Notes under the pieces: generated by a model
Databases searched by the model: none
Seen by the model: the letters and a program-made list of their open reading frames with translations, nothing else
What the model was told of the DNA's origin: nothing
Position numbers and translations under genes: made by a program
Shown here: positions 2,691-27,640 of the stretch, in pieces
How the letters are laid out: each line of letters starts with the position of its first letter
How positions within the stretch are numbered: the first letter of the stretch is position 1
Source of the DNA: Myxococcales bacterium
Lineage (GTDB): Bacteria; Myxococcota_A; UBA9042; JABWCM01; BTVJ01
Length of the DNA stretch: 32,967 nt
Assembly: GCA_045863395.1 (NCBI GenBank)
Contig: BTVJ01000086.1
Coordinates: forward strand, 1 to 32,967
Reading direction: 5' to 3'

Positions 2691-2847
2691 CCCCGGAGCC
2701 TGCGCGAGGAGCCGCCCGAGCGCCCGCTGCCGATGACGCACGATGCCAGGCACCACGCCCTGGTGCGCCATGGGGAGCAAGCACCGCGTGAGGTCGGCGA
2801 CCATCAACTGGCGGACCCGCGTCCGCACCGCCGGGAGAGTGACTGAC

Positions 2848-12569: not shown

Positions 12570-14480
12570 TCAGGGGGTGAGAAGCGGATTGCGCACCAGC
12601 GCGAAGACGGCTTCCGGGTTGCGGAGCGCCTCCAGGTTGCGGATGGGACGCCCGTTGAGCGCGTCCTGGGCCGCGCGCTCGGAACGCTTGCCGTTGTGGG
12701 TGGTGGGCAGCTCCTCCACCGGGGCGATGACCGCGGGGACGTGGGCGAGGGAGCAGCGCTCCTTGATCTGGCGCTTGATGCGCAGGGTGAGAGGGCGGTC
12801 GAGGGTGACGCCCTGGGCGAGCACCACCAGCAGGACGATGCGCCGCTCGCCCCGGTCGCCGCCAGTCTCCTGGTCCACGGCCATGGCCTCGGCGATCTCG
12901 GGGAGGTCGCGCAGGGCGTCGTAGATCTCCGCGGGCCCGATGCGGATGCCGCGGATGTTCATCACCCCGTCGGAGCGCCCGAGGATGCGCGCCCCGTGAT
13001 CGCCGAGCTCCACCAGGTCGCCGTGGGTCCAGAAGCCGGGGTTCTCTGCGTAGTAGGCGGCGTGCAGGCGCGCGCCGTCCGGGTCATTCAGGAAGGCCAC
13101 CGGGCGTGAGGGGAACGGGGTGGCGCAGAGCAGCTCGCCGCGGCCAACCCGCAAGGGGCCGCCGGGGCCGAGGGCCCGCAGGTCGAAGCCCAGGCCCGCG
13201 CAGGGGCTCGTGCCGCGCCACACGGGGAGGAGCGGGCTCCCCAGCACGAAGCAGCCGATGAGATCCGTGCCGCCCGACACGCTGTAGAGGGGCACGTCAC
13301 CGAGCTGCTCCCGGACCCAGTCGAAGTGGGCGGGCGGGAGCACCGAGCCCGTGGACTGCACCTGGCGCAGGCGCGGAAGGGCGGGCGCCGAGACTCCCGC
13401 GTCGCGCTGGAGCTGGATCCACGGGGGGCTCGTGCCGAACACCGTGACCTCGTGGTCGGCGAGCACATGGAGCAGCGAGTCGGTCCGGGGGTAGGCGGCG
13501 GACCCCTCGCGCACCACGATCTCGACCCCCGACGCGAGGGCCGAGAGCTGCCAGTTCCACATCATCCAGCCGGTGGAGGTCTGGAAGAGGAGCCGGTCGC
13601 CGGGGCCCAGATCGGCGTGGAGGCGGTGCTCCTTGACGTGCCCGAGCAGCGTGCCGCCGTGGCCGTGGACGATGCACTTGGGCTTGCCGGTGGTGCCCGA
13701 CGAGAAGAGCACGAAGAGCGGGTGGTCGAAGGGCAGGCGGACCCATGGAGTCGATGAGGGCGGCGTCGCGAGCAGGTCTGCGAGGGCGTGGGAGGCGACG
13801 CCCAGGTCCGCGACCGGGCGCTGGAAGGCGACGGCTGCCCGGAGGGGGAGGGCGCCGGCGACGGCGCGCACCAGGTCGTCGAGCGGCCTGCCGGCGCCCT
13901 GGTAGACGAGCTCCGCGTCGTAGAAGAGCAGGGCAGGGCGCACCTGCTCGAAGCGGCTCAGGATGGCCGAGGCGCCGAGGTCAGGGGAGACGGACGACCA
14001 GGCGGCCCCTACGCAGGCGGCGGCGAGGCTGGCGACGATGGGGTCGGCGGTGTTGCGCGCGATCGCGGCCACCCGGTCGCCGGGGCCGATGCCGAGGGAG
14101 CGGAGCGCGGCGGCCAGGCGCGCGACCCGGTCGCGCAGCGTGTCTGTGTCGACGCGCTCGACGACCCCGCCCTCGTCCAGCGACAAGACGGAGCCGCCAC
14201 CGCTGAGCAGCGCCTCGGCGTAGTTCAGCCGCACGCCCGGGAAGAAGCGCGCGGTCTCGACGGTGCCCTCGGTGCAGGCGGGGCGGGGGTCGCCCTCGAA
14301 GGGCAGGGCGGCCCACTCCAGGAGCAGCCCCCAGAAGCGGCCGACGTCCTCGATGGAGAAGGCGTGGAGCGCCCGGTGGTCGGGTAGGGGCACTCCCGTG
14401 CGTCCCTCGCAGAAGCGGGCGAGGGCGGCGAGCCGAGAGGCGGCGGCACGGACCGGGTCGGGGACGTGCAGGGGACTCAT
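12570..14480 (-). CDS. Acetoacetate-CoA ligase-like AMP-forming acyl-CoA synthetase
   Basis: FFPGVRLNYAE, FSSGTTGKPKCIVH, LLGHVKEHRLH, TGWMMWNW, SVSGGTD, HGD, GRSDGVMN, GIRIGPAEIY. The start overlaps the ACP stop (ATGA, 14477-14480). Confidence 0.9.
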   Translation of the reverse strand: MSPLHVPDPVRAAASRLAALARFCEGRTGVPLPDHRALHAFSIEDVGRFWGLLLEWAALPFEGDPRPACTEGTVETARFFPGVRLNYAEALLSGGGSVLSLDEGGVVERVDTDTLRDRVARLAAALRSLGIGPGDRVAAIARNTADPIVASLAAACVGAAWSSVSPDLGASAILSRFEQVRPALLFYDAELVYQGAGRPLDDLVRAVAGALPLRAAVAFQRPVADLGVASHALADLLATPPSSTPWVRLPFDHPLFVLFSSGTTGKPKCIVHGHGGTLLGHVKEHRLHADLGPGDRLLFQTSTGWMMWNWQLSALASGVEIVVREGSAAYPRTDSLLHVLADHEVTVFGTSPPWIQLQRDAGVSAPALPRLRQVQSTGSVLPPAHFDWVREQLGDVPLYSVSGGTDLIGCFVLGSPLLPVWRGTSPCAGLGFDLRALGPGGPLRVGRGELLCATPFPSRPVAFLNDPDGARLHAAYYAENPGFWTHGDLVELGDHGARILGRSDGVMNIRGIRIGPAEIYDALRDLPEIAEAMAVDQETGGDRGERRIVLLVVLAQGVTLDRPLTLRIKRQIKERCSLAHVPAVIAPVEELPTTHNGKRSERAAQDALNGRPIRNLEALRNPEAVFALVRNPLLTP

Positions 14481-14740
14481 GCGGGGCCGCCCACCTCGGC
14501 GACGCGCGCCAGGATGCGCCCGAGGGTGCCGAAGTTGTCGCGCGTCAGCGAGGCGCGGTCGAGCTGGATGCGAAGGGTCTCCTCCAGCCACAGGACCAGG
14601 GCGACGAACCCCACCGAATCGAGGATGCCCGTGTCGAGCCACGACATCTCGTCGCTCGTGACCAGCGACCGGGCGTCGCCGAAGTGGTAGTTGTCGTCCA
14701 GCCAGTCCAGGATGCTCTCGCGCAGGGCGTCTCGGGTCAC
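14477..14740 (-). CDS. Acyl carrier protein (DltC-like)
   Basis: 87 aa, acidic, with the GILDSVGFVALV phosphopantetheine-attachment motif; RBS AGGAGGA before the GTG start. Confidence 0.88.
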   Translation of the reverse strand: MTRDALRESILDWLDDNYHFGDARSLVTSDEMSWLDTGILDSVGFVALVLWLEETLRIQLDRASLTRDNFGTLGRILARVAEVGGPA

Positions 14741-14844: not shown

Positions 14845-17040
14845 CTAGTCCAACGCGACGCCCGGCTCCACCTCGATGCCGAGGTCGCTCAGGGCGAGGA
14901 GCAGGTCCTCGACCTTGTCCTCGTCCACGACGTAGACGTGGGGGCCCAGCAACCCCCGGACCGCGCGGCGGACGGTGGGGATGGCGAGCAGGTCCTGAGC
15001 CAGTTGGGCGTTGTGGAGCTTCACGACGGTCAGGGTCGCGAGCCCCGGCGGCTTCACCTCGCCGCTGTGGCCCATGACCCGCGCGCGGACGCTCCGGGGC
15101 ACCTTGCCGATGACGCGGAGGTCCAGGGTGGCGAGGAGGTCCGCCGCCGGGCGCCTCGAGCGGCGGATGGTGTCGCGGTCGAGGCGCCAGCCGCCCGCGT
15201 CGGGAACGGCGACGGACCGCAGGGTCGCGTCGAGCGCAAGGTCGGCGGTGGGTGCGTGGACGTGGATCCGCCCGCTGTCGTCGAAGCTGAGGCTACGTGT
15301 TGGCGGAGCGGCGTAGTCGATGACGGTGCCCCCCTTGGCCGGCGCCGACACGAGGCCGAAGCGGTCGCCGACGGGGAGGGGGCCCACGTCTCCATCGGTG
15401 CGCTCACCCGTGATCTCGACGAGGTCGTGGCCCAGGTACAGGGTGACGGCGCCCACGCGCCGGGCCCAGTCGCGGACCGTGCGGGCCACGTTGTCGGGGA
15501 CCGGGCGCCTCGCGTGGGCCTCGAGCACGTCGAGCACGCCATCGGCGGTGGCGCCCGCGGCCATGGCGCGCAGCAGTCCGTCCTGCTCGATGCGGTAGCG
15601 CCTCACGGGGTCGCCGGGGCGCCCCTTGACGGGGGTGAGCAGCGTCTCCAGGCGCGCGAGGAGGTCCGGTGGGGCCTCGACCACCGGCGCCACCACCTCG
15701 AAGTCCGCGCCCACGATGAGGCACGGAGTCGCCGCCCTGGCGACCGGCGCCGCGCCCTGGAGCACCTCGCGCCCGAGAGGCGTGAGCCGGAACGCGACCC
15801 CGCACGTGAGGCGGCGCCACTCGGGCTTGCCGCGGTCGTAGATGGACGTGCGGAAGCCCTCGGCGAGCTGGGAGTGTCTCGATGGGCGTGTGAAGTCATG
15901 GGGCGCGGCGCCAGTGTCGCCCAGCTCCACCAGGCCCAGCGCGAAGCAGGTCCGGCCGACGAAGCACCGGACCAGCTCCTCCTGGATCGCCTGCTCGGAG
16001 GCAGTCTCCGGGCGAGCGTAGGAGGGGCGTCGGCGCCAGAAGTCTCGCTCGGTGTAGATGCCGGGGGCGAGGGTGAGCGCCAGGTCCACCAAGGCGTCGA
16101 GGTCCATCCACGAGTCGCCCTTGAGGCGACGGAGGATCCCGGTGACCACCCGGCGGGCGTTGATGAGGGACGGGAGGGGGACGATCCCGTAGGTCTCGTC
16201 GCGGCAAGCCTTCGAGGCAACGACCAGGTCGCCGAGGGGGACGTCGTCGTAGAAGCGGCTCTTGTCGGTTGCGGCAGCGAGGATGCGACGGGTGGCCTCT
16301 CCGAGGGAGGCGTCCAGGGCGTGGGCGGCCGCCTCCGTGGGTCGCAGACGGCCCGCCGAGTCCTCGACGAGGCCCAGGGCGAGCGCCAGCTCGGCCAGCA
16401 TCGGGGCGCACAGGGGGCCCTCCAGGGAGAGCTCCCGCTCGATGACGCCGAGCTGGGCGCCGGTGACCCAGCCGTCCTTGGTCAGGCGGATCGAGCGCCG
16501 GCCCGCGAGGCCCGCGAGGCCCAGGAGGGCGGCGACCGCGGCGCCGGGGGGCGCGGTCCGCGGGTTGCTTACCGAGGCCGGGACGACGGGCGCCAGGGAC
16601 TCTCTGCGCGGCTGGAGAGGACGGAGCCCTTGCGCAACGCCAGGCAGCACGTGGACGGGGTTGCGGGCCTGCTGAGGCAGCTCACCCAGGTCGAACATGA
16701 CCTCGGATCCGAGCCGCTCCAGGAGCACGAGGCCCGCGCTCGCCACGTGGCTGAACACGCCGGCCGCGTCCCGCACCCCCCGCGCGGCGGCGTCGTAGAT
16801 GAGGCCCTCCACGGTCGGTCGGGCCAGGTCCAGAGCGGTAGCCAGCAGGAGCTGGCCATCGTCGTTCAGCGTGGCGACGAGCGAGGCGACGGCGGTTGGG
16901 CGCGACATCAGCGCGGTGAGGCGCTCGACGCAGTCGCCCTTGCTCTTGATGACTCGCGGGTTGGGGACCCACGCGCCGGCCATGGAGCGCAGGGCCGCGC
17001 TGCTGTAGCAGTCCAGGAGGCGCTCCAGCGACGGCGTCAC
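14845..17040 (-). CDS. XPB-associated Helicase_C_3-domain protein (p52/Tfb2-like C-terminal half)
   Basis: FRLTPLG..LIVGADFEVV..YRIEQDGLLRAMAAGATADGVLDVLEAHARRPVPDNVARTVRDW. No ATPase motifs. The GTG start overlaps the stop of the 67-aa gene (GTGA); an alternative GTG is at 17046. Confidence 0.8.
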   Translation of the reverse strand: MTPSLERLLDCYSSAALRSMAGAWVPNPRVIKSKGDCVERLTALMSRPTAVASLVATLNDDGQLLLATALDLARPTVEGLIYDAAARGVRDAAGVFSHVASAGLVLLERLGSEVMFDLGELPQQARNPVHVLPGVAQGLRPLQPRRESLAPVVPASVSNPRTAPPGAAVAALLGLAGLAGRRSIRLTKDGWVTGAQLGVIERELSLEGPLCAPMLAELALALGLVEDSAGRLRPTEAAAHALDASLGEATRRILAAATDKSRFYDDVPLGDLVVASKACRDETYGIVPLPSLINARRVVTGILRRLKGDSWMDLDALVDLALTLAPGIYTERDFWRRRPSYARPETASEQAIQEELVRCFVGRTCFALGLVELGDTGAAPHDFTRPSRHSQLAEGFRTSIYDRGKPEWRRLTCGVAFRLTPLGREVLQGAAPVARAATPCLIVGADFEVVAPVVEAPPDLLARLETLLTPVKGRPGDPVRRYRIEQDGLLRAMAAGATADGVLDVLEAHARRPVPDNVARTVRDWARRVGAVTLYLGHDLVEITGERTDGDVGPLPVGDRFGLVSAPAKGGTVIDYAAPPTRSLSFDDSGRIHVHAPTADLALDATLRSVAVPDAGGWRLDRDTIRRSRRPAADLLATLDLRVIGKVPRSVRARVMGHSGEVKPPGLATLTVVKLHNAQLAQDLLAIPTVRRAVRGLLGPHVYVVDEDKVEDLLLALSDLGIEVEPGVALD

Positions 17041-17240
17041 GCCCACCGGCCCACCTCCTTCGGAACGTGGCCCAGCTTGCCGAGGCGCGAGAGCAGCTCG
17101 TGGTACCCCTCGCGCCGGACGCCGGCGGTGTCCTCGGCCGGGCGCGCGACCACGAGGCGGGCGATTGCAGGATCCGAGAGGAGCTGCTCCATGACTGTCG
17201 GCTCCGCACGGAACCAGAGGAGATTTCTGTGGATCTTCAT
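17037..17240 (-). CDS. 67-aa small protein, possibly p8/Tfb5-like fold
   Basis: Fills the gap between XPB and the Helicase_C_3 gene exactly, with ATGA and GTGA overlaps at the two ends. Confidence 0.8.
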   Translation of the reverse strand: MKIHRNLLWFRAEPTVMEQLLSDPAIARLVVARPAEDTAGVRREGYHELLSRLGKLGHVPKEVGRWA

Positions 17241-18895
17241 GGACGCGCGTCCTCGATGCGGTAGTCGTAGCCCTGCTCCACCAGGAAGAGCTGGCGGTGG
17301 TGGGCCAGGTCCTGCTCCACCGTGTCGCGGCTGACCAGGGAGTAGAAGTGGGCCTGGTTCTCTCCCTTCTTGGGGCGGAGCAGGCGGCCAAGGCGCTGGG
17401 CCTCTTCTTGTCTGGAGCCAAACGTGCCCGAGATCTGGATGGCGAGGGAGGCGTCCGGCAGGTCGATGGCGAAGTTGGCGACCTTGGACACCACGAGGCG
17501 CTGCTCGCGCCCCTCGCGGAAGGCGTCGTAGAGCTCCGCGCGCTTGCGCTGCGGGGTGTCACCGGTGAGCAGCGGGGCGCGCAGCGCGTGGGCCACGGCC
17601 TGGAGCTGGTCGACGTAGGTCCCGATGATCAGCGCCTGGGCGTCCGGGTGGCGGGCGAGCAGCGCGCTGACGACCGGCAGCTTGCGCGGGTTCTCGGAGG
17701 CGACCCGGAAGCGCAGGCGCTCCGGGGCCGCTGCGTACTGGCGGCCCAGCTCCGGTGCCATCGGGACTCGCACCTCGGAGCAGGTGGCCCTCGCGATCCA
17801 CCCCTGCCGCTCCATGGTCTTCCACGGGATGTCTAGCTTTTTGGGCCCGATCAGGGCAAAGACGTCGCCCTCCAGGCCGTCCTCGCGCACCAGCGTGGCG
17901 GTCAGTCCCAGGCGGCGCCGCGCCTGCACCTCTGCGGTCACCCGGAAGACCGGTGCCGGCAGCAGGTGCACCTCGTCGTAGACGATGAGGCCGAAGTCCC
18001 GCTGGCGGAACAACCCGAAGTGGGTGAAGTCGTCTCCCTTGCGCTTCCGGTGGGTCAGGATCTGGTAGGTGGAGACCGTGACGGGGCGCACCTCCTTGGC
18101 CTGCCCCGTGTACTCTCCAATCTGGTCCGGGGTCAGGTGGGTCTTGTCCAGCAGCTCGTCGATCCACTGGCGCACGGCGGTCCCGCTGGTGGTCAGGATC
18201 AGGGTCGAGGCGCCGACCCGCTGCATGGCGGCGATGCCGACGATGGTCTTGCCCGCCCCGCACGGGAGCACGATGACGCCGGAGCCCCCGTGGGCCGCGC
18301 CCGAGGCGTGATACACGTCCACGGCCTCTTGTTGATAGGGGCGAAGCGAGAATGGGAGACCGGCGAGGGTCTGCGCGCGGGCCTGGATGGACAGCGGCTC
18401 GCCGGGAGTGTAACCCGCGAGGTCGACCGCCGGGAAGCGGGCGCGGATCAGGGCCTGCTTGAGGGCGCCGCGCGCCAGCAGGGTGGCGCGGAACGTGCGA
18501 TGCGAGACAAACTCCAGGTGCTCGCGCAGCTCGTCGCGGAGCCACAGCTCCTCGGCCAGCTCGGGAGTGTCCGCCTCCAGGCGAAGCTCGCCGTCGGACA
18601 CGGTCAGGACGACGCGGCCGAAGCGCGCGGCGATGGAGAGAATCTCGTCTTTGACGTGATGGGGTAATGGGTATCTGGAGTGTCTCGTCAGTGCGTCGAC
18701 CATCTCGCCCGCGGGCACTCCCCCGGCGGCCGCGTTCCAGATGGACAGCGGCGTGACTCGCCAGGTGTGCATGTGCTCCGGGGACTTCACCAGCTCCGCG
18801 AAGCGGCAGATGTCGTTGCGCGCGTCCTCGTGGCCGGGGTGGTCCACCTCCAACAGCAGGGTGAGGTCCCCTTGGACGATGAGCGGTCCGGTCAT
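17237..18895 (-). CDS. xpb: DNA repair helicase XPB (Ssl2/Rad25/ERCC3 family), 552 aa
   Basis: N-terminal PLIVQGD..LLEVDHP..FAEL.KSPEH.HT; LRPYQ; LPCGAGKT; DEVH; LGLTATLVREDG (RED motif); QISGTFGSRQEEAQRLGRLLR. Confidence 0.95.
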   Translation of the reverse strand: MTGPLIVQGDLTLLLEVDHPGHEDARNDICRFAELVKSPEHMHTWRVTPLSIWNAAAGGVPAGEMVDALTRHSRYPLPHHVKDEILSIAARFGRVVLTVSDGELRLEADTPELAEELWLRDELREHLEFVSHRTFRATLLARGALKQALIRARFPAVDLAGYTPGEPLSIQARAQTLAGLPFSLRPYQQEAVDVYHASGAAHGGSGVIVLPCGAGKTIVGIAAMQRVGASTLILTTSGTAVRQWIDELLDKTHLTPDQIGEYTGQAKEVRPVTVSTYQILTHRKRKGDDFTHFGLFRQRDFGLIVYDEVHLLPAPVFRVTAEVQARRRLGLTATLVREDGLEGDVFALIGPKKLDIPWKTMERQGWIARATCSEVRVPMAPELGRQYAAAPERLRFRVASENPRKLPVVSALLARHPDAQALIIGTYVDQLQAVAHALRAPLLTGDTPQRKRAELYDAFREGREQRLVVSKVANFAIDLPDASLAIQISGTFGSRQEEAQRLGRLLRPKKGENQAHFYSLVSRDTVEQDLAHHRQLFLVEQGYDYRIEDARP

Positions 18896-19902
18896 CTCGG
18901 CTTCCTGGTGCGGGTGCGTGCGGGCGCTGTGTTCCGTTGGGGTTGTGACGAGGACGCGAGCCGCTTCGCCCACCCGTGGAGGTGCGGGTGGTCGGGTGCC
19001 AGGCGGGCGGCCAGCTCGGCGATGGCCATGGAGACCTCCTCGGCGCGGCCGGCGGCCCGGGCGGACTTCTCCAGGGAGACCAGCATGGGCGTGTAGGCCG
19101 GGCGGCCCGGGAGCGCGACGAGGAACAGGTCCGTCGCCAGGTCGAACGCTTGGAGCTTGTGCGCCTTCCACCCCGCGTCCCCTGCCACGTCGGGCGGCAG
19201 CGCTGCGAGCCGCTCTCGCACCACCACTCGCGCCGTTTCGCCTTCTCCGGCGCGCAGGAGCTTCTCGAGGTACGCGGCGAACAGCGCGTCGGGGATGCCC
19301 TCGCCGAGGTCCACCATGGTCTCCACCTCGTCGCGGAGGTCGCTGGTGCCCATTTCCTGCCCGCGGAGCCTGGTGCGGGTCTCCTGCGCCCAGGTGTCCT
19401 CGGGGTGGCGAGCCAGGTGCTCGTCCAGCCACTGGAGGGCGCGCGCCAGGTCTCCCCGCCGCTCCCAGAGCCACGCCAGGTCCTGTGCGACCTCGGGGTG
19501 CGCGGGCCAGAGGGGCGTGAGCAGGGCGTCGGCCTCGTCGAGCTTGCCGAGATGGGTCAGCACCTTGCCGAGCCAGCGCTCCCGAGACCAGTGGGGGAAG
19601 ATGGCGAGGCTCTCCCGCAGGTCCCGGGCGGCGTCTGCCCAGGCGCGCTCCCGGCACGCAGCCCGGCCGCTCCAGTAGAGGATGCGCCCCGACGCCGGGT
19701 ACAGCTCCCGGAGCTGCCGCGCCAGCCGCCGCGCCTCCGCCGGGTCCGCGAACCGCACGAGCCGCTCCAGCTCCAGTGCGCGCGTCGCCTCGGACAGCGG
19801 GTCCTCGTCGCGAAGCCGGGCGAGCAGGTCGTCAGCGGCCCCCCGGTCGCCCCTCCTGAGGGCGTGCTGAAGGTTCCGTCGAAGCACTTCCACGTAGGCC
19901 AT
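18892..19902 (-). CDS. Tetratricopeptide-repeat protein
   Basis: Helical TPR-like repeats (YWSGRAA..WADAARDLRESL; WLGKVLTHLGKLDEADALL; DLAWLWERRGDLARALQWL). The stop overlaps the XPB start (ATGA, 18892-18895). An alternative GTG start is at 19989. Confidence 0.75.
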   Translation of the reverse strand: MAYVEVLRRNLQHALRRGDRGAADDLLARLRDEDPLSEATRALELERLVRFADPAEARRLARQLRELYPASGRILYWSGRAACRERAWADAARDLRESLAIFPHWSRERWLGKVLTHLGKLDEADALLTPLWPAHPEVAQDLAWLWERRGDLARALQWLDEHLARHPEDTWAQETRTRLRGQEMGTSDLRDEVETMVDLGEGIPDALFAAYLEKLLRAGEGETARVVVRERLAALPPDVAGDAGWKAHKLQAFDLATDLFLVALPGRPAYTPMLVSLEKSARAAGRAEEVSMAIAELAARLAPDHPHLHGWAKRLASSSQPQRNTAPARTRTRKPR

Positions 19903-19985
19903 GGCAGCCTCGATAGCGCATGTGGGGTGCGCGTGCAAGCGGCCATGGGGGTTCGGGGGTGGGCGGATCGTGGCCAGCCGCCCGG

Positions 19986-20831
19986 TCACGCCTCGGGATC
20001 GAGGCCCAACTCACGGAGGCGCGCGGCGAGGCGGTCGGCGCGGGCGGCCTCCTGCGCGGCGCGGGCAGCCTCGTGCTCGGCGCGGGCAGCCTCGTGCTCG
20101 GCGCGGGCAGCCTCCTGTTCGGCGCGGGCAGCCTCGTGCTCGGCGCGGGCAGCCTCCTGCTCGGCGCGGCTCTTCTGCTCCAGCCCCCTGGCACGCTCCA
20201 CGGCCAGGCGGGGCCGCTGCTCGCCCTGGTACCAGATGTCGAGCTTGTGCCCGTTCTCCCACTGGTCGCGAGGGAGGACCCTCAGCTCCAGGCCCGGCAC
20301 GGAGCGCGACTGCACGGAGCCCCCCGGCGCCAGGTCGTGGTGCTCATAGCGCTCTCCCGAGAGCTCGCACCAGACCAGGGAGCGCGCGTCGTCCAGGTCC
20401 GGAAAGACAAGCGCAAACTCGGGGACCTGGCTGAACTCGTTGAGGTATCTCTGGAAGTGGATGTCCTTCGTCTCCTTCCGGGGGTCGTTGGTCGACACGA
20501 TCTCGATGACGAGGAGCAGATCCTCGGACGTGATGCGGTTGCGGTCCACGGGCCGGGCGAAGACACAGTCGCCGTAGTAGGCCCTCTGCTCCATGGTCTC
20601 GGGGTGGATGTACCAGATGGGATGGTCCGAGAGGAAGATGAGCCCCGCCTCCCGGGCGATGGCCCGCAGGATGGTCGTGGTCTCGCCAATCATCAGCTCG
20701 TGCGCGGTACTCTGCGGCACTTGCAGGGCCTCGTCGAAGTAGGGGATCCCATCGAAGGCGGTGTGGAGGCGCCGCTCGAGGTAGGGGCGATCCGGGGGGT
20801 AGATGCGGTAGCTGGTCATCGCCTGAGACAT
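19986..20831 (-). CDS. Uma2-family (PD-(D/E)XK-like) putative endonuclease with coiled-coil tail
   Basis: PQSTAH, YYGDCVF, LLLVIEIVS; tail RADRLAARLRELGLDPE is typical of the family. Confidence 0.75.
   Translation of the reverse strand: MSQAMTSYRIYPPDRPYLERRLHTAFDGIPYFDEALQVPQSTAHELMIGETTTILRAIAREAGLIFLSDHPIWYIHPETMEQRAYYGDCVFARPVDRNRITSEDLLLVIEIVSTNDPRKETKDIHFQRYLNEFSQVPEFALVFPDLDDARSLVWCELSGERYEHHDLAPGGSVQSRSVPGLELRVLPRDQWENGHKLDIWYQGEQRPRLAVERARGLEQKSRAEQEAARAEHEAARAEQEAARAEHEAARAEHEAARAAQEAARADRLAARLRELGLDPEA
20037..20162. repeat. Coding tandem repeat, 6 x 21 bp (heptad E[QH]EAARA)
   Basis: Unit ggcgcgggcagcctc[g/c]tgctc at 20037, 20058, 20079, 20100, 20121 and 20142, with minor variants in some units. 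Confidence 0.92.
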
Positions 20832-20917
20832 GAACACCAAGGTAGACGATGGGCGGGGAGGGGTCAACCGGCGGGGTGCCCTCCATCACGCGGGGAGGAG
20901 CGGAGCTCGATCCCCGT

Positions 20918-22213
20918 TCATGGCGCCTGCCTCCTCGTATCCACGAAGTCGACGTCGGGGAGCTCCACCTCCCAGGCGTCCGCGGCCAGCACGTCGAGGC
21001 GCGGAGAGTCCCGGGCCCGGAACGCGGCCTTGATGGCGTCGGCCAGGGCGGCACCCAGGTCGTCCGGCCGGGGCACCCGGATGCGCCGCAGACACTGCGC
21101 CTGGAAGCGCAGGTAGCCCCCGCGCATCTTCACCGTGTAGGACCACACGAAGAACAGGGCCATGCGCGAGCTGAGGAGCCCGCCGAGCACCTCCAGGTCC
21201 CACACGTCCGAGGTGACGAAGTACAGGTTGTGGTGCGGGTGGTAGCCCCCCGCGTCGTAGACGACCTCGTTGGCCCCCGCGATGTCCGGTATGAGCGGCT
21301 TGGGGGTTCCGACCAGGCCCGGATGGACCCGGTCGATGGTGCGCAACCAGTGGGACGGGCTCTTGCGCGCGACGTCCCGGCGCCGCACGGCGGCGAAGCG
21401 GTCCAGATGACGCGCGAGCCGCGGGTAGCAGCCGATGTCGATGGCCCTGCCGTCCTCGCCGAAGGTGTCGATGACGAAGCGCCCCGCGTCACGCACTGCC
21501 CCGGCGTGGAGATCCTCGCGCATGACCAACGGCACGAGGCGGTGGGCCTCGATGTCTGCCGAGGAGTCAACGATGCAGGCGGCGTCGGCGCCGGTGGCGA
21601 CCCCGATACCGACACGGGTCCTGCCGACCTCCTCCAGCGCCGGGAGGCGGGCCTCCAGATCGCGGAGGAGTCGCAGGTGGGCGGGGCTGCTCAACACCCA
21701 CGGATCTGGGCCCTCGAACCAGGTCGGGTAGACGGCGACGTCCACCCCCACCGCATCGAGGCCCCGCAGTGCTCGCGAGGCCGCGTCGCTCTCGGCTGCG
21801 CTGGCCGTGGTGAGCCTGGCGACGGAGACCGCCGTGCCAGGGCGCCGCCCGATGCAGAAGATGGACGGGTAGGCGATGACCTCTGACTCGAACGGAGACG
21901 CGTCGTGGAGATCGACGTAGGACCTCACGGCGTACCGGCGCGTCACCAGCTCGCGAAGGGGCGCCCCATACCGGTTCAGGGTCCAGCGGACGGCGCAGAC
22001 GTAGGACAGCATGCCGTCCTCGCCGAGCAACCGGAGCCCGCGCTCGATGAACGCGACGTACAGGTCGGCCCTGTCGAACAGGGTCGCGTAGCGCCGCCGG
22101 TACTCAGCCTGCAGGGTTGGTGCGAGCTGCTCGGTGCGGACGTAGGGTGGGTTCCCCACCACGACGTCGAAGGGCGGCAGCGGGGCGAGCAGGAAGACGC
22201 CTTCACGAAGCCA
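20918..22213 (-). pseudogene. 5'-truncated N6-adenine DNA methyltransferase (gamma class, PaeR7I/XhoI-like)
   Basis: FDVVVGNPPYVR, RADLYVAFIERGL, RW..NRYGAPLR, VGIGVATGAD, PHHNLYFVTS, MRGGYLRFQAQ.LRRIRVP. No SAM-binding motif I (xEPxxGxG) upstream; homology starts abruptly at WLREG. Confidence 0.8.
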
Positions 22214-22284
22214 GCGCGAATGTGTCCTTGGAGAACGCCGCGGGCAGCCGGAGCTGGAGTGCAACAGGATGCCCCCAAACTCAC

Positions 22285-22362
22285 AATGATCTCGGCAAGC
22301 TGATGCTCCGGCACCTGGAGCAGGTCGTCGAATGTGGCTGGGCGTCGGGCGGACCCTGCCAT
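22285..22362 (-). pseudogene. N-terminal fragment of a Uma2-family gene
   Basis: RBS GGAGGT followed by MAGSARRPATFDDLLQVPEHQLAEII, a typical myxobacterial Uma2 N-terminus; similarity then stops. Confidence 0.7.
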
Positions 22363-22520
22363 GGCGTACCTCCGTGGCTGCCAGCATAGCGGACCCCGGT
22401 GCGCCGGTCACCCGTGGCGGCGACCGCTACGCAAGCGGTCCGCGCGACCGCCCCAGAGGCCAGCTCCGACCACGAGCGCCAGCCTGTGCTATGGTAGCCG
22501 CCGCGACAGGGAGGTCGGCG

Positions 22521-23108: not shown

Positions 23109-23420
23109 ATGGACTGGTTTCGAGTGACCTGCGACGAGGAGGAGGTCCGGGCGGACGTGGCGCCTCCGGGAGGGGTCGCCTGGTCCCGCGCCATTCGCTG
23201 GGGCTCCGTCGAGCGGGTCTGTTTCGAGGCGGGAGGGCTCTGGGAGTCTGACACCTGGTACCTCTTCGAGCGGGGGGAGCCCCACAGCTTGATGATCCCG
23301 AGCGGCGCACCGGGAACCGGCGAGCTGCTCGACGCGCTGATGGCGCGCGGGCTGTTCCCGGCGGAGCTGGCCATCCGGGCGGCCACCGGCGAGGGGCTGA
23401 CCTGCTGGCCGACCGAGTGA
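23109..23420 (+). CDS. Hypothetical protein, 103 aa
   Basis: RBS GAGG, GC3-biased codons, globular-looking composition (IRWGSVERVCFE). Confidence 0.65.
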   Translation: MDWFRVTCDEEEVRADVAPPGGVAWSRAIRWGSVERVCFEAGGLWESDTWYLFERGEPHSLMIPSGAPGTGELLDALMARGLFPAELAIRAATGEGLTCWPTE

Positions 23421-23473
23421 CTCCCGCACCACCTCCATGTACAATCGCGCCTCGTTCCGGGGGACGGAGGCCC

Positions 23474-26400
23474 ATGACGACGATTCGCGACCTGGTCGGC
23501 GCCCGCGCACAGCCCACCGTGGTGCGCCTCGAGGAGTCCCTCGACGCGCCGTGGATCACCGAGTCCTACTGCGTCACGCCGGACGTGCGGCGGCATGTGG
23601 ACGCCCTGCGCCACGCCCTCTCTCGCGACGCCGGCACGGGTGCCTTCCTCATCGGGCCCTACGGGTCGGGCAAGTCACACTTCCTCGCGTGGCTCGTTCA
23701 GGCGGTGCGCGCGGGGCGGCTCGGCGAGCCGCTGACCGTGGTCGCCCTGTCGCTGCTGCACTACCCGGCCGAGGCGCGGCTGGAGGACGTCGTCTGCGGG
23801 GCCGCGGGCATCCCCGTCGGCACCGGCGACCGGCGCCCCGCGTGGGCGGCGGCGCTCCAGAGATCCACGGGCGGGCTCCTGCTGGTCATCGACGAGCTCT
23901 CCGAGTTCCTGCGCAGCAAGCCGGACGCCCACCGGTTCAACGAGGACGTGCGCTTCCTCCAGTATCTCGGCGAGCTGGCCGGCGACGGGCGCCTGTTCGT
24001 CGTCTGCGCCATGCAGGAGGCCATCGAGCACACGGGGGAGCTGGAGCACGCCACCTACCGCAAGATCCAGGACCGCTACCCGCTGCGCATGCGGCTGACG
24101 CCCTCGCACGTGCGGACGCTGGTGTCCGAGAGCCTGCTGGTCAAGCGCCCGGGCTATGACGACGCGGTGGCGGAGCGCGTGAGGCAGCTTCGCGCAGCCG
24201 TCCCCGACGCGACCGTGGACTTCGGCGCCCTGGCGTCCATCTACCCGATTCACCCGGCGACCCTGGACCTGCTGGAGGAGGTGCGCGACCGCTTCTCGCA
24301 GGCCCGCGGCGTCGTGGGCTTCGTCACGACGCAGCTCCTCGGGGATCCGGGGCGCGGTATCGCTCCCTTTCTCGATGAGCCTTGGGGGGCGCTGCTGACG
24401 CCAGACGCCATCGTCGCGCACTTCGAAGACATCCTGGAGGTGCAGGCGGAGTTCCAGCCCCTCGCGCAGCAGCTCTTCCCCTGGTACCGGCGCCACATGG
24501 GCGAGCTGTTCGAGACGGAGCGGCTCGCGGAGCTGGCGCACCGGCTCCTCCGGCTGCTGGCGCTCGTCCATCTTTCGCCGCAGCGTGAGCGCCTGACGGC
24601 CGGTGAGGCCGCGAGCTGGCTCCTGTTCGCGGCGAGCCGCACCGACCCCTCGCGGAACCAGGCGATCATCGAGCGCACGTTGGACACGCTGGCGACGCGG
24701 GGCCGGTACATCCGCAAGGAGGCCGGCGGCTACCGCGTGGACGTGGAGGACGACGGCGCCTCCCGCCTCGACCGCGCTCTGGAGCGGGAGCTGGCGGAGC
24801 TGCCGGACGCGGCCATCTGCTTCGAGCTCATCGCGGGCCTGGACACCACCGGGTTTCCCCTCTTCGCGCTGCCCCGCGACGTCTGGCAGTCGTGCAGGAC
24901 GGCCTGGTGCCTCCACGAGCGCCTCTGGTCCCTGTGGGTGGGCAACGAGGATCCGCCGCGCCCTCCCCAGTCACCCGCTCTCGTCGTGCGCCTGCCGTGG
25001 GGGCAGGCCCCGTCGGCCCACGGCTGCACGACCCTGCACCCGGCGCCGCTCCAGCTCACCCCGCCGCTGCGGGAGCTGGCTGCGCTGGCGCGGCTGCGGG
25101 AGCGCCCCCTGGCGCCCGAGCTCGTCGAGCTCGCGGGGCGCCGCATCTCCGAGCGTCTACCGCTGTTCCAGCACGAGCTGCGGGCGTCCCTCGCGGACGC
25201 CAGGGCGGTGCGGCCCACTGGCACCATCGACAAGGCCCTCCCGCTGGGTCCCCGCGACGGGCTGGACGACTGGCTCGGGCGGTGGGCGCTCGGGATGCTC
25301 CAGCGGGACTTCCCCCAGTTCGAGCGGCTGGCTCCCGCGGAGGGCCCGCTGCCCAAGGAGGCATGGCGGGAGCTCGTGCGCTGGGGCCTGGAGCACGACC
25401 TGGGGGACCCGGACGCCCCGCAGCTCGTCCGGTCGATCCGGGAGGGCTACCTCGTCCCCATGAAGCTCCTGGAGCGCGCGGGGCGCGGCTACGTGGTCCG
25501 CCGCACCGACACCCACGACCTGGTCAAGCTCGTGCTGCCGCTGCTGGACGGTACGCCATTGCCGAAGACCGTCTATACGCACCTCGCGGGACCGGTGTAT
25601 GGCCTCGTGCCCGACCAGATCCACGCGCTCTTGCTGACGCTGCTGCTGCTCGGCGAGGTGGACATCGAGAAGGGCGGGCGGTCCCTGCGGGAGCTGCACG
25701 ACTCCCTGCCGCTGCCCATCCAGTACGACCGCATCACGGCGGGGCGAGCGCTCCCGCCGGCGGCCCTGACGGCGCTCACGAGCCTCGCCGACGGCCTCCA
25801 CCTCAAGCCGCCCGCACAGTGGACCATCGAGGGGCAGCGGCAGGTGATCGGGCGCCTGACCGACGTCATCCGAGCACGCGCCGAGCGCCTGCGGCCCCTG
25901 CTGCCGCGCCTGGAGGGGGCGCTGTCCGAGCAGGCGCGGGAGGTGCTCGCGTGGAGCGATGCGTTGAGCGGCGAAGAGCGCCTCGCGGCCTTCGAGGCGC
26001 TGCTGGTCCGCGCAGGGTCGGCGCCGCGCATCCTGGAGCGCCTCGGCTTCATGGCCGACCTCCCGGAGCGCTTCGAGCGACAGGTGACGGAGGTCGGGCG
26101 GATGCGTCACCTCCTGTCCCAGCCGGGCCTCGCGGATGAGGGCGTCGAGGAGCCGCCCCCGCTGGACCGTCCGGACGCCGTGGACGCCTGGATCTCCCGC
26201 GCGCGCTCCGTCGTCGCGGCCTATGCTGCCCGCTACCGGGAGGCCCACGACGCCTGGTGGGCGGCGCGGGCCGACCACCCGGCCTGGACCTGGCACCCAC
26301 CGGCGGTGGCATGGTCCAAGCACGCAGGAGTGGACGCCGATGCATGGAGACGTGCGCGGGAGGCCCTCCGCCGTTGCGCTGGGCTCGGCCCCCTCGACTT

Positions 26401-27640
26401 CCAGTCCCGGTGCGCCTGCGGCTTCGACGGGGAGCGAGCGCCCGCAGGAGACGGCCTCGACGCGCTCGCCGCCATCCGGGACCGTGTCGAGCGGGAGCTG
26501 CGGGCCGTGTTCTCCCAGGCCGAGGTGCGTGCGAGAGTTCGGACCTGGGCGGAGATCGAGCCTGCTGCGATGGCGTATGTCGAGGGGCAGGCCGACTGGC
26601 CCACCGTCGAGGATCTGCGAGGCTTCGACGAGCACCTGGGCGGGGTGGACGTGGTGCGGGCGGTGGGCGCGGGCGCGCTCCTCGAGGGCCTCTTGGATCG
26701 CACCTGGGAGCCGGCGGCCCTCTCCAGCGCCCTGGCCGAGCGCGTCCAGGCCGTCGGAGCGCGGCGAGTTCGCCTGGAGGCGCCCGAGGCCGCGGGCCTG
26801 CTCCCCTGGTGTGTAGAGCAGTGCCTGCGCCACGGGGAGCCGCTGCCCGCGGGAGTCGACGTGACGGGCGTCCCGATCCCGGCCGCGTGGGTGTCTCCAG
26901 CAGCGCTCGAGCGCCTGGAGTCGCTGGGCCTCGGCGCCGCAGCGACTGCGGTGCTCCGACTGTTGGTGGACGGGGCGCTCCCCGCCCCGGACCGCCCCTC
27001 TCCCCTGGTGGCCGCTGCGCTCGCTACCAGAGAGCCGACGCTTCCCCTGCCGCCCGCCGCCCTGGCCACCCTGGCCGAGCGGCTCTACCGGCACCACGAG
27101 GCCATCTGGGCCGCGGCTCGCGACCGCTGGCTCCAGCGCCTCGACGCCCTGGCCACCACCCCGCTGAGCGAGCCGTGCCTGCCGGTGGAGGCGGTGGTGC
27201 GGGCCCACCCGGATCACTCGTGGCTTGTCGTCGACGCGCTGGGCCTGCCGCTGCTCGGCCCACTCGTGGAGTCGCTTCGGACCCTGCTTCCGGGCTATGC
27301 GCTGGACCGCACCCTGTTCGCGGAGGCGCCTCGGGCCACCACCACCGACGCCTTCTACCGCCGCCTGGCGGAGGCGGGAGTGAACCACCCCTTCGAGAAA
27401 GTGGACGCCCTCGACGGCCTGCTCCACGGGCGCTCACTGCCGCTCGACGATCTCTGGCGAATCGCGGCCGCGGAGCTGGGCGCCGCGCTGTCCAGCGTGC
27501 GGCCCCGCCTCGGGCCCCTCCTCCTCGTCACTGCCGATCACGGCTTCCGCCTGGCCCCAACCGGCCGTGGCTACACCCACGGCGGTCCCTCCACCCTGGA
27601 GCGCACGGTGCCGGTCCTGCTCCTGCGTCGGGCGGGGTAG
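23474..27640 (+). CDS. BrxC/DUF6079-like P-loop ATPase fused to a C-terminal PglZ-like alkaline-phosphatase-fold domain, 1388 aa
   Basis: RBS GGAGG; Walker A GPYGSGKSH (from 23654); Walker B LLLVIDELSEFLRSK; FLQYLGE; YPIHPATL; C-x11-CxCGF. C-terminal VVDALG / TTT / DGLLH / TADHGF / THGGPSTLERTVP. Confidence 0.8.
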   Translation: MTTIRDLVGARAQPTVVRLEESLDAPWITESYCVTPDVRRHVDALRHALSRDAGTGAFLIGPYGSGKSHFLAWLVQAVRAGRLGEPLTVVALSLLHYPAEARLEDVVCGAAGIPVGTGDRRPAWAAALQRSTGGLLLVIDELSEFLRSKPDAHRFNEDVRFLQYLGELAGDGRLFVVCAMQEAIEHTGELEHATYRKIQDRYPLRMRLTPSHVRTLVSESLLVKRPGYDDAVAERVRQLRAAVPDATVDFGALASIYPIHPATLDLLEEVRDRFSQARGVVGFVTTQLLGDPGRGIAPFLDEPWGALLTPDAIVAHFEDILEVQAEFQPLAQQLFPWYRRHMGELFETERLAELAHRLLRLLALVHLSPQRERLTAGEAASWLLFAASRTDPSRNQAIIERTLDTLATRGRYIRKEAGGYRVDVEDDGASRLDRALERELAELPDAAICFELIAGLDTTGFPLFALPRDVWQSCRTAWCLHERLWSLWVGNEDPPRPPQSPALVVRLPWGQAPSAHGCTTLHPAPLQLTPPLRELAALARLRERPLAPELVELAGRRISERLPLFQHELRASLADARAVRPTGTIDKALPLGPRDGLDDWLGRWALGMLQRDFPQFERLAPAEGPLPKEAWRELVRWGLEHDLGDPDAPQLVRSIREGYLVPMKLLERAGRGYVVRRTDTHDLVKLVLPLLDGTPLPKTVYTHLAGPVYGLVPDQIHALLLTLLLLGEVDIEKGGRSLRELHDSLPLPIQYDRITAGRALPPAALTALTSLADGLHLKPPAQWTIEGQRQVIGRLTDVIRARAERLRPLLPRLEGALSEQAREVLAWSDALSGEERLAAFEALLVRAGSAPRILERLGFMADLPERFERQVTEVGRMRHLLSQPGLADEGVEEPPPLDRPDAVDAWISRARSVVAAYAARYREAHDAWWAARADHPAWTWHPPAVAWSKHAGVDADAWRRAREALRRCAGLGPLDFQSRCACGFDGERAPAGDGLDALAAIRDRVERELRAVFSQAEVRARVRTWAEIEPAAMAYVEGQADWPTVEDLRGFDEHLGGVDVVRAVGAGALLEGLLDRTWEPAALSSALAERVQAVGARRVRLEAPEAAGLLPWCVEQCLRHGEPLPAGVDVTGVPIPAAWVSPAALERLESLGLGAAATAVLRLLVDGALPAPDRPSPLVAAALATREPTLPLPPAALATLAERLYRHHEAIWAAARDRWLQRLDALATTPLSEPCLPVEAVVRAHPDHSWLVVDALGLPLLGPLVESLRTLLPGYALDRTLFAEAPRATTTDAFYRRLAEAGVNHPFEKVDALDGLLHGRSLPLDDLWRIAAAELGAALSSVRPRLGPLLLVTADHGFRLAPTGRGYTHGGPSTLERTVPVLLLRRAG

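Follow-up and report, generated by a model that had tools for sequence, protein, structure and literature searches.

The stretch of DNA analysed (the window, 32,967 nucleotides of a Myxococcales bacterium) contains three chained genes on the minus strand. These are xpb (18895–17237), which codes for a bacterial XPB DNA helicase/translocase of 552 aa, a small ORF coding for a stand-alone module of 67 aa (17240–17037), and the gene of a p52/Tfb2-like partner of 731–733 aa (14845 to 17040 or 17046, depending on the start codon). An earlier note had placed the three ORFs at these positions, with the partner read from GTG 17040, and every peptide segment that it quoted is present in the sequence. 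It had also described the genes as joined by two 4-nt overlaps. Both ATGA (17237–17240) and GTGA (17037–17040) can be read in the sequence, but the second overlap is probably 10 nt, since the partner probably starts at GTG 17046, two codons before GTG 17040. The ribosome binding site AAGGAGG (17060–17054, minus strand), located inside the small gene, has a spacing of 7 nt to GTG 17046 and 13 nt to GTG 17040, and both database gene calls for the partner give 733 aa. Residue numbers of the partner are counted below from GTG 17040.

The overlaps alone are weak evidence of a functional link, because a TPR gene (19989–18892) and a Uma2 gene upstream are chained in the same way. A survey of 120 related loci gave no homologue of the TPR protein and a single one of Uma2, and it showed no nuclease or other conserved neighbour beside the trio. 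None of the neighbouring genes for TPR, Uma2, methylase or acetoacetate-CoA ligase was accepted as belonging to the system. The GC content of the small ORF by codon position (0.74/0.46/0.87) matches that of the neighbour genes. When 9,593 short ORFs from 80 xpb loci were compared with the small-family profile, nine matched at E≤10: eight genes directly behind xpb and one fragment of a split partner. The small ORF is more than a chance frame, and all three overlapping genes are real. Searches of the locus for a sigma-70 promoter and a terminator gave no match. Contigs from RNA runs of two studies span the genes with cover that is equally flat over the neighbours; they were rejected as a sign of transcription, which contigs of this kind cannot show.

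The xpb product scores 817 bits against NCBIfam NF045503 (cut-off 610) and is thus a member of this family of bacterial XPBs, which includes Ercc3 of M. tuberculosis. It matches Pfam families PF16203, PF13625 and PF04851. The SF2 motor has intact Walker A (GAGKT), DEVH and XPB-specific RED motifs; G215-K216-T217, D307-E308-H310 and R337-E338-D339 are invariant across 91 aligned XPBs. The N-terminal domain (residues 5–122; 18530–18883, minus strand; PF13625, E=3.8e-29) has the clutch fold. The DRD-like domain (residues 100–157; 18425–18598, minus strand) is a copy of the module that forms the 67-aa protein: profile-profile comparison with the small family gave a probability of 92.9 and E=3.7e-7 over 59 columns.

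The earlier note had pointed to a p52-clutch-like segment in the partner and suggested a Foldseek comparison with Tfb2. In a Foldseek search with the AlphaFold2 model of the partner (pLDDT 87), all 17 matches at E≤0.001 were p52/Tfb2, spanning 388–615 columns, and residues 146–723 fitted human p52 128–461 with Z 14.6 (VIA). A profile built only from prokaryotic partners matched human p52 308–450 in one stretch (E=6e-8), and the bacterial partner profile matched residues 305–450, that is the clutch and the p8-binding domain, also in one stretch (E=3e-9). Family profiles matched the Tfb2 and p52 clutch at E values from 5e-7 to 3e-9. The partner is a p52/Tfb2 homologue, with strong homology by sequence and fold, and the likeness extends over more length than the note had claimed. 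Because it falls below the cut-offs of Pfam Tfb2 (PF03849) and Tfb2_C (PF18307), it is filed as a remote homologue and not as a member; searches with the Tfb5, Tfb2 and Tfb2_C models did not find the locus. A single-sequence search with residues 430–731 returned only one near-identical copy and no p52 in the PDB. Whole-chain fits to p52 had rmsd values of 12–20 Å and a TM of 0.2, so the domain arrangement of p52 is not reproduced in the partner model.

Residues 49–142 of the partner match generic winged helices (ORC1/Cdc6, Z 6.5–7.0), the N-terminal part of p52, where p34 and p62 bind, being aligned in only one p52 row. The winged-helix region that follows (residues 146–431; 15748–16605, minus strand) corresponds to the middle domain MD1 of p52 (residues 121–319; PMC7708078). 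It fitted 6tru_A 121–319 with Z 9.7 and rmsd 4.1 over 163 aligned residues, the best unrelated row having Z 7.4 (both VIA). The MD1-like region before the clutch is thus recognized by fold; family-profile comparisons with p52 gave no sequence-level match to MD1. Clutch 1 (residues 436–529; 15454–15735, minus strand; PF13625, E=5.9e-15), the counterpart of p52 MD2, is folded like the N-terminal domain of XPB (Z 15.1, rmsd 1.9, 92 aligned residues against the human domain, VIA). At one site clutch 1 of the window reads G-A-D, where others have Q-P-N (43, 43 and 38 of 50 partners at the three positions). By register we take this site to lie near E359 of fungal p52. That glutamate is essential for activation in the fungal protein (PMC7708078).

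Behind clutch 1 lies a decayed internal small module (residues ~537–565; 15346–15432, minus strand), assigned from the secondary structure of the model and without a score against the small-family profile: it has three short strands, and both helices are missing. Clutch 2 (residues ~582–659; 15064–15297, minus strand) is a diverged duplicate, with strands and helices ordered as in clutch 1 in the model and with a second clutch match in orthologues. Positions 641–740 of the partner-family profile matched human p52 345–452 at E=0.0015. The chain ends in a p52-CTD-like small module (residues 665–727; 14860–15048, minus strand), so that the second unit supplies the p8-fold C-terminal domain which in p52 stands behind the clutch. 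Profile-profile comparison of this module with the small family gave a probability of 96 and E=4.4e-9 over 63 columns.

By sequence, the 67-aa protein falls in a family of small stand-alone proteins that has no name and whose profile found 1,146 cluster representatives at E≤0.001, fused copies in larger proteins included. Alone, it matched no Pfam or NCBIfam family; a single-sequence search returned only the protein itself and no p8 in the PDB, with one weak match among 60 close relatives. The AlphaFold2 single-sequence model (pLDDT 82) has the order strand-helix-strand-strand-helix with a final strand, and family alignments show the motif HxN...LxxxGxxP. The best natural match of the 145-row family profile was yeast Tfb5 (E=0.0029, Tfb5 residues 8–55). 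This signal grew with depth: Tfb5 was not found with 9 rows, and had E=0.0099 with 48 rows. A 76-row mixed-module profile gave E=0.59, Pfam Tfb5 being absent among its members. Designed and repeat proteins (PPR, TIM barrels) that ranked above Tfb5 were rejected as artefacts of summed weak repeats, as was a short stretch of ribosomal uS15 above Tfb5 with the 48-row profile (E=0.0047). Such artefacts mark the noise level of the profile searches.

Pfam Tfb5 (PF06331) was matched by 14 of the 145 family members, with a best E of 0.0042 and all below the cut-off, and the next Pfam families by 7 and 3. Since it lies below this cut-off, the 67-aa protein is filed as p8-like and not as p8. It has the features of p8 in being a stand-alone chain of ~70 aa with three strands, two helices and the p52-CTD fold, but this fold is not unique. 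The model fitted p8/Tfb5 with Z 6.0–6.2 (rmsd 2.2–2.4, 55–56 residues) and the p52/Tfb2 CTD with Z 5.1–5.3 (both VIA), while unrelated ferredoxin-like domains, with Z 6.3–6.7, were level with or above Tfb5. Foldseek, proposed earlier as a check, gave a best E of 0.04; the p8 fold is there, but it is a common one. The link to p8 is consistent but weak. With human XPB 171–297 (DRD-like) the model had Z 7.0 and 22–26% identity, and since the fit to this domain is equally good, the small protein is not assignable as a p8 orthologue. Homology to the module shared by p8, the p52 CTD and the DRD can be stated with moderate confidence. Of the earlier proposal of a p8-like protein, shared-module homology and conserved linkage are supported, but p8 orthology stays conjectural, the module being also that of the XPB DRD-like domain and of the partner's last domain. 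A tree of 146 modules from bacteria and archaea (quick method; 68 columns; no eukaryotic rows) left the small family unplaced. Cross-profile medians were 45 bits for the last module of single-unit partners, 33.5 for internal, 18.7 for terminal and 17.6 for XPB modules; for the small protein of the window itself, the internal profile gave 16.7 and the single-unit profile 12.5.

When the search was begun with the small protein, 55 short-frame matches turned up in other genomes, and 43 of them were read. All 43 copies read in the window's phylum stand directly behind xpb or before the partner; the gene-neighbourhood survey called for in the earlier note thus finds the small gene conserved beside one or the other. 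In 80 xpb loci, the small gene was the next gene after xpb in 8, and a clutch-bearing partner was present in 49. Among 40 fetched loci, the small gene follows xpb directly with the partner elsewhere in 18, and small gene and partner stand without xpb directly upstream in 21. Few loci in the phylum have all three genes in this order (one of the 40, plus genome G111 and the window). Where the small gene followed xpb alone, a two-clutch partner was encoded elsewhere in all five genomes tested. An XPB-type PF13625 match was present in 60 of 62 genomes positive for the small profile; XPB with the N-terminal domain was not found in genomes G213 and G245 (96–97% complete), both of which have small gene and partner. 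The earlier note had called XPB beside a Helicase_C_3 gene known in Actinobacteria; for that group the analysis covered a Corynebacterium control, which had a PF13625 match.

The state of the internal module follows the small gene. It is decayed in 29 of 29 partners beside a small gene and intact in 21 of 21 partners without one, and the pattern was repeated in four of four further partners read afterwards; the 21 intact-module partners are all from Chloroflexota and thus not independent. The stand-alone small gene matches the loss of the module behind clutch 1.

Compared with the eukaryotic XPB-p52-p8 subcomplex (human ERCC3/GTF2H4/GTF2H5, yeast Ssl2/Tfb2/Tfb5; PDB 6NMI, 8EBT, 6TRS and 3DOM), the trio shares the following parts: XPB carries a clutch-fold domain at its N-terminus and a DRD-like domain besides its two motor domains; the partner has a winged-helix region in the middle, a clutch, and a small module at its C-terminus; and a protein of ~70 aa is the same module in free form. 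In TFIIH, p8 forms a heterodimer with the p52 CTD and touches motor domain 2 of XPB. In contrast to p52 (462 aa), the window's partner has a tandem duplication of clutch plus module, the first module being decayed, and in the small protein, unlike p8, the GxxP turn is followed by one more strand, for which p8 chains have no counterpart (the alignment of the model ends at residue 57). Whereas TFIIH is a known complex, the trio is known here from genes and predicted folds. The term "TFIIH-like core" used in the earlier note was too strong: p44 (Ssl1, PF04056) had no match in the genome (97% complete), and XPD, p34 and p62 were not among the conserved neighbours in the 120 loci. With no p44 gene and no linked nuclease, the trio is a sub-module and not the TFIIH core. 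The earlier note knew of no described bacterial XPB-p52-p8 trimer, and our literature search likewise found no description.

Two other systems are related. Helicase_C_3-WYL proteins (PF13625 + WYL) contain the same clutch domain as the window's partner, which itself is without the WYL domain; WYL-type partners adjoin a second xpb in five genomes tested. This architecture is listed as a WYL class in PMC6789036, whose main text, with no occurrence of 'TFIIH', does not appear to link it to p52 or XPB. The archaeal-type XPB-Bax1 helicase-nuclease likewise joins an XPB motor to a dedicated neighbour, but Bax1 is a nuclease (DUF790) whereas the window's partners have no enzyme domain. The window's genome also encodes such an XPB + DUF790/Bax1 pair, on contig C56.

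We propose, with a probability of about 0.6, that XPB, the p52 homologue and the small p8-like protein constitute a small TFIIH-like motor tuned by its partners. Common ancestry of the parts is very probable. In eukaryotes the clutch pairs with the N-terminal domain of XPB as a pseudo-symmetric dimer (PMC6422496), and according to PMC7708078 p52 and then p8 raise the XPB ATPase stepwise and cap it. By analogy, assembly of the three proteins as a physical trimer is likely, and the odds are slightly in favour of the partners controlling XPB activity. In this trimer the partner would dock through its clutch domain on the N-terminal domain of XPB, and the small protein would bind a small module of the partner. 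The likelier mate of the small protein would be the C-terminal module 665–727, because this has kept both helices; alternatively, the small protein could take the place of the internal module that has decayed. Partner and small protein would brace the motor domains and set the ATPase/translocase rate, as p52 and p8 do in TFIIH, and the winged-helix region would take the motor to its target, DNA or another protein. Most likely, the trimer would open or remodel DNA at damage or stuck transcription complexes, working beside UvrABC and not replacing it. Points against the proposal are the rarity of the full gene order, genomes G213 and G245, the common fold of the small protein and its equally good fit to the XPB DRD, the poor whole-chain fits to p52, the G-A-D site of clutch 1, and the dependence among the 21 Chloroflexota partners.

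The same trimer might instead work on RNA polymerase, in promoter opening or in displacing stuck or drug-stalled polymerase. The mechanism would be that proposed above, only the role being different and nearer to TFIIH in transcription than in repair. This is unlikely, even though UvrB and the separate XPB-DUF790/Bax1 pair suggest that repair is already served and the trio travels without a nuclease. According to PMC10534295, an M. tuberculosis ercc3 mutant was more sensitive to rifampin in one screen, but the effect was not seen in a CRISPRi screen. Moreover, the conserved neighbours include no transcription gene. Bacterial holoenzyme opens promoters without an ATPase, which also counts against such a role.

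A separate two-protein assembly of small protein and partner, serving as regulator or DNA-binding scaffold and co-regulated with xpb but not stably bound to XPB, is improbable; in it the small protein would be the lost internal module acting in trans. The 21 loci without xpb directly upstream, genomes G213 and G245, and the loose grouping of the small protein with internal modules in the poorly resolved tree would fit such a pair. However, the 18 loci with the partner elsewhere tie the small gene to xpb itself, XPB is kept in 60 of the 62 positive genomes, and no role of the clutch fold other than XPB binding has been solved.

Quite improbably, the partners could be brakes or decoys, a clutch mimic and a free module holding XPB off DNA or inactive until damage occurs. 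According to PMC7708078, p52 and p8 limit XPB speed when DNA is present, but in the fungal system without DNA the net effect is activation. The polar motif of the family is missing from the window's clutch, and the WYL-like ends of other partner classes (as in PMC6789036) suggest a signal input, but the window's partner has no WYL domain. An unrelated ferredoxin-like origin of the 67-aa protein, with a chance likeness to p8, is highly improbable: Z-scores fail to separate p8 from unrelated folds and the protein has no direct family match, but Tfb5 is the top natural match of the family profile, the partner's last domain, which the small family matches strongly, is part of the segment aligned with the p8-binding domain of p52, and linkage to xpb or partner is complete, so that the profile evidence makes a chance likeness unlikely.

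For the TFIIH-like motor we suggest, tentatively and at somewhat less than even odds for the whole, an evolutionary reading in which the XPB-p52-p8 motor is a prokaryotic machine older than eukaryotes, from which p52 and p8 descend. One clutch-plus-small-module unit would be repeated once in XPB and once or twice in the partner, with the small protein as the free module. Bacterial intermediates would include two large partners, a decayed-module partner with a free module, and WYL-tailed partners; some archaea of the phylum containing Thorarchaeota would retain XPB and partner. If this reading is true, the system would be an undescribed bacterial DNA-opening pathway.

Studies of bacterial XPB have looked at the protein without partners, and its role is called elusive (PMC3353954, PMC13024598); the purified mycobacterial protein was active only in high molar excess (PMC3353954). 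A TFIIH-like motor of this kind has been reported as lacking in bacteria. Should bacterial XPB depend on partners like p52 and p8, the three genes would make its real activity measurable for the first time. Studies of how TFIIH originated would gain their first prokaryotic relatives of p52 and p8, and the trio would be a minimal model of the part of TFIIH in which mutations cause xeroderma pigmentosum and trichothiodystrophy.

The trio lies on the minus strand of the window and comprises xpb (18895-17237, 552 aa), a small ORF (17240-17037, 67 aa) and the ORF of a large partner (17040-14845, 731 aa). The overlaps between these genes and the peptides quoted in the earlier note are all present in the window sequence. 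Translation of the partner probably begins at GTG 17046, because AAGGAGG is found 7 nt ahead and both database gene calls give 733 aa. The encoded XPB is a member of NF045503 with intact motor and RED motifs; the host genome is 97% complete and has 71% GC. By themselves the gene overlaps are weak evidence, because the upstream TPR and Uma2 genes are equally chained yet unconserved: 120 loci contained no homologue of the TPR protein and one of Uma2.

The region upstream of xpb (18892-22411, minus strand) contains the TPR gene, the Uma2-family nuclease-fold gene and an Eco57I-type methylase, none conserved with xpb. Close to the end of the Uma2 gene, which has two paralogues in the host genome, lies a short tandem repeat, and an 87% identical copy of the methylase is located on contig C100. 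Immediately downstream of the partner (12570-14740, minus strand) are an acyl carrier protein and an acetoacetate-CoA ligase-like gene, which probably form a unit separate from the trio. Defence-type genes elsewhere in the window encode a CRISPR-associated TM1812/Csx20 fusion (2743-4611, plus strand) and a large DUF6079/BrxC-like P-loop protein (23417-27640, plus strand).

The evidence for homology between the large partner and p52 is strong. Searched as a single sequence, it matched only PF13625 (residues 441-536) and was not detected by the Pfam Tfb2 and Tfb2_C models. A clutch-plus-tail profile built from 63 stretches of bacterial partners recovered human p52 308-450 without a break at E=6e-8. 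Yeast Tfb2 scored 4e-7 and the XPB N-terminal domain 3e-10, and unrelated rows began at 0.025. When archaeal rows were added (66 rows), p52 305-450 scored 3e-9 and the first unrelated row 0.0005. The p52 likeness proposed in the earlier note was borne out by the AlphaFold2 model of the partner (50 rows, pLDDT 87): all 17 Foldseek matches at E≤0.001 were p52/Tfb2. In VIA comparisons the first clutch (residues 436-529) aligned with the XPB N-terminal domain (Z 15.1, rmsd 1.9), residues 146-431 with the p52 middle domain (Z 9.7), and residues 146-723 with p52 128-461 (Z 14.6, rmsd 19). The last rmsd indicates that the domains of the two proteins agree, whereas their arrangement differs. Unlike p52, the partner has a doubled unit of clutch plus small module, and in the model its first small module lacks both helices. 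One Chloroflexota partner cluster in the Atlas carries PF03849 (Tfb2) on 10% of its members, thus the p52 link already leaves a trace in databases. Some two-clutch partners adjoining a small gene (L006:5143-7797, L116:4400-6934 and L124:1889-5209) have an extra C-terminal tail, WYL-like by eye.

The 67-aa protein belongs to a genuine family that carries no name. In a word-based search it matched nothing except its own sequence. A profile search of the full library gave 1,146 representatives at E≤0.001; of the best 150, most have lengths of 63-130 aa. Among ten clusters looked up one was named, as 'hypothetical protein'. The nearest small-protein clusters in the Atlas are in Planctomycetota and Actinomycetota and carry no family name. 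Residue 4 of the window protein (17037-17240, minus strand) is a histidine, invariant in 48 stand-alone small proteins, and the fused modules compared have other residues there; His4 is a candidate for a contact that the free small protein alone makes.

The neighbourhood of the small gene was surveyed from both sides. GTDB gave 384 XPB loci, and in eight of the best 80 a homologue was found immediately behind xpb; of the 9,593 short ORFs in these 80 loci, only those eight and one partner fragment scored E≤10. Seven of the eight were followed by a partner of the window type, and at the eighth the contig stops. The search with the small protein in 401 genomes of the host phylum yielded 71 places in 63 positive genomes; of these places, 55 are short frames that lie outside the host genome. 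In this gene-neighbourhood survey, a check suggested in the earlier note, the small gene adjoined xpb or the partner at all 43 places examined of the 55. With about 5 kb per side (40 places), 18 were directly behind xpb, 21 directly before the partner and one both; with 1.5 kb (three places), one was both and two were before the partner, one of these weak. A two-clutch partner was found elsewhere in the genome in all five 'xpb plus small' genomes tested. An XPB-type PF13625 match was present in 60 of the 62 other small-positive genomes, versus any match in 143 of 400, counts in which related genomes are not independent. The two exceptions, G213 and G245, have a small gene beside a degenerate partner, and the only XPB found in them is distant and lacks the N-terminal domain. 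Clustering of 2,075 ORFs revealed no other neighbour genes conserved across phyla.

The likeness of the 67-aa protein to p8, also drawn in the earlier note, stood in part: the sequence signal is consistent with it but weak, and the fold is equally like the XPB DRD. In a Foldseek search, the single-sequence model of the protein (pLDDT 82) found p8/Tfb5 and XPB chains among the top rows, but at E≥0.07. VIA gave Tfb5 Z 6.2 (rank 4 of 48,161), the XPB DRD 5.7, the Tfb2 CTD 5.3 and procarboxypeptidase domains 6.3-6.7, and in a second comparison human XPB 171-297 was top at Z 7.0. Because procarboxypeptidase and XPB DRD score alike or higher, the fold by itself cannot decide p8 identity. Yeast Tfb5 was absent from the matches of a small-family profile of 9 rows, appeared at E=0.0099 with 48 rows and, with 145 rows, was the best natural protein (E=0.0029). 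Of all Pfam families, Tfb5 drew matches from the largest number of members (14 of 145 at E≤1); its scores were weak (best 0.0042), thus the alignment contains no true p8. The small family matched the partner's last domain (E=4.4e-9), which falls inside the stretch matching the p8-binding domain of p52, and XPB 100-157 (E=3.7e-7). On account of these two matches the XPB DRD-like domain, the partner modules, the small protein, the p52 CTD and p8 all resemble copies of a single module. The small protein may be a p8 orthologue or a bacterial copy freed separately.

The segment behind clutch 1 was scored with the small-family profile in 50 aligned two-unit partners. In all 29 partners adjoining a small gene it reached at most 10.8 bits; in all 21 without one it scored 19-52 bits. 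These 21 are all from Chloroflexota, where they come after a second large, single-unit partner. At L047 and L074, two Chloroflexota loci where a small gene is present, the module is decayed, and it was absent in four of four partners examined later, from genomes where the small gene follows xpb alone. In the simplest reading, the free module substitutes for one that other systems hold within the large protein. Stand-alone copies are rare in Chloroflexota: four of the matches, which came from 50 of 201 genomes, were short frames. The tally includes G604, a genome flagged unpublished that enters no other result. At L011, L014, L016, L034, L035, L054 and other loci of that phylum, two and at times three large clutch proteins, paralogous to one another, are encoded behind xpb.

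In the Thorarchaeota-containing phylum, 28 of 151 genomes had at least two clutch-unit matches, and in nine examined these were XPB and a single-unit partner; 11 loci of these nine genomes contained no stand-alone small gene. At the archaeal loci L184-L193 and L072, XPB and the single-unit p52-like partner are a few kb apart, the partner usually adjoining a gene that by eye resembles a clamp-loader small subunit. A partner contig labelled 'Bathyarchaeia' (L195, G413:C60) has the same neighbours as a Brevibacillus locus (L196), so the label of G413 probably stems from faulty binning.

Within TFIIH, the N-terminal domain of XPB pairs with the p52 clutch in a pseudo-symmetric dimer (PMC6422496). 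According to PMC7708078, p8 and the p52 CTD have a common fold, p8 contacts the second motor domain of XPB, the XPB ATPase is raised by p52 and next by p8, the pair caps the ATPase on DNA, and translocation is seen only inside the complete core. Since all required parts are present at the locus, we infer that XPB, the partner and the small protein would assemble as XPB-p52-p8 does (probability roughly 0.7), and, at slightly better than even odds, that the partner and the small protein would control XPB as p52 and p8 do. On the other side, the window clutch has G-A-D where the family has Q-P-N, and PMC7708078 ties translocation to the complete core, whereas the host genome gave no p44 match and no further neighbour of the trio was conserved across phyla.

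In the literature searched, mostly open papers, there was no description of a bacterial p52 or p8; supplementary domain tables of comparative-genomics studies could already hold the link. The host genome also encodes UvrB and an archaeal-type XPB-Bax1 pair, in which a second, distant XPB (33% identity) is directly followed by a DUF790/Bax1 gene (C56:2017-4417, L227), therefore the trio is an additional system. Five genomes of the host phylum (L228-L232) have a second xpb and partner, the latter with an end WYL-like by eye, besides an xpb-small system with a two-clutch partner, and thus two parallel XPB modules each. The main rival view of function is that the trio acts on RNA polymerase (PMC10534295); judged by family, repair is the likelier role. 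We regard the trio as a variant, in prokaryotes, of the TFIIH sub-module XPB-p52-p8, its complex putative, with a strong case for p52 and a moderate one for likening its small protein to p8.
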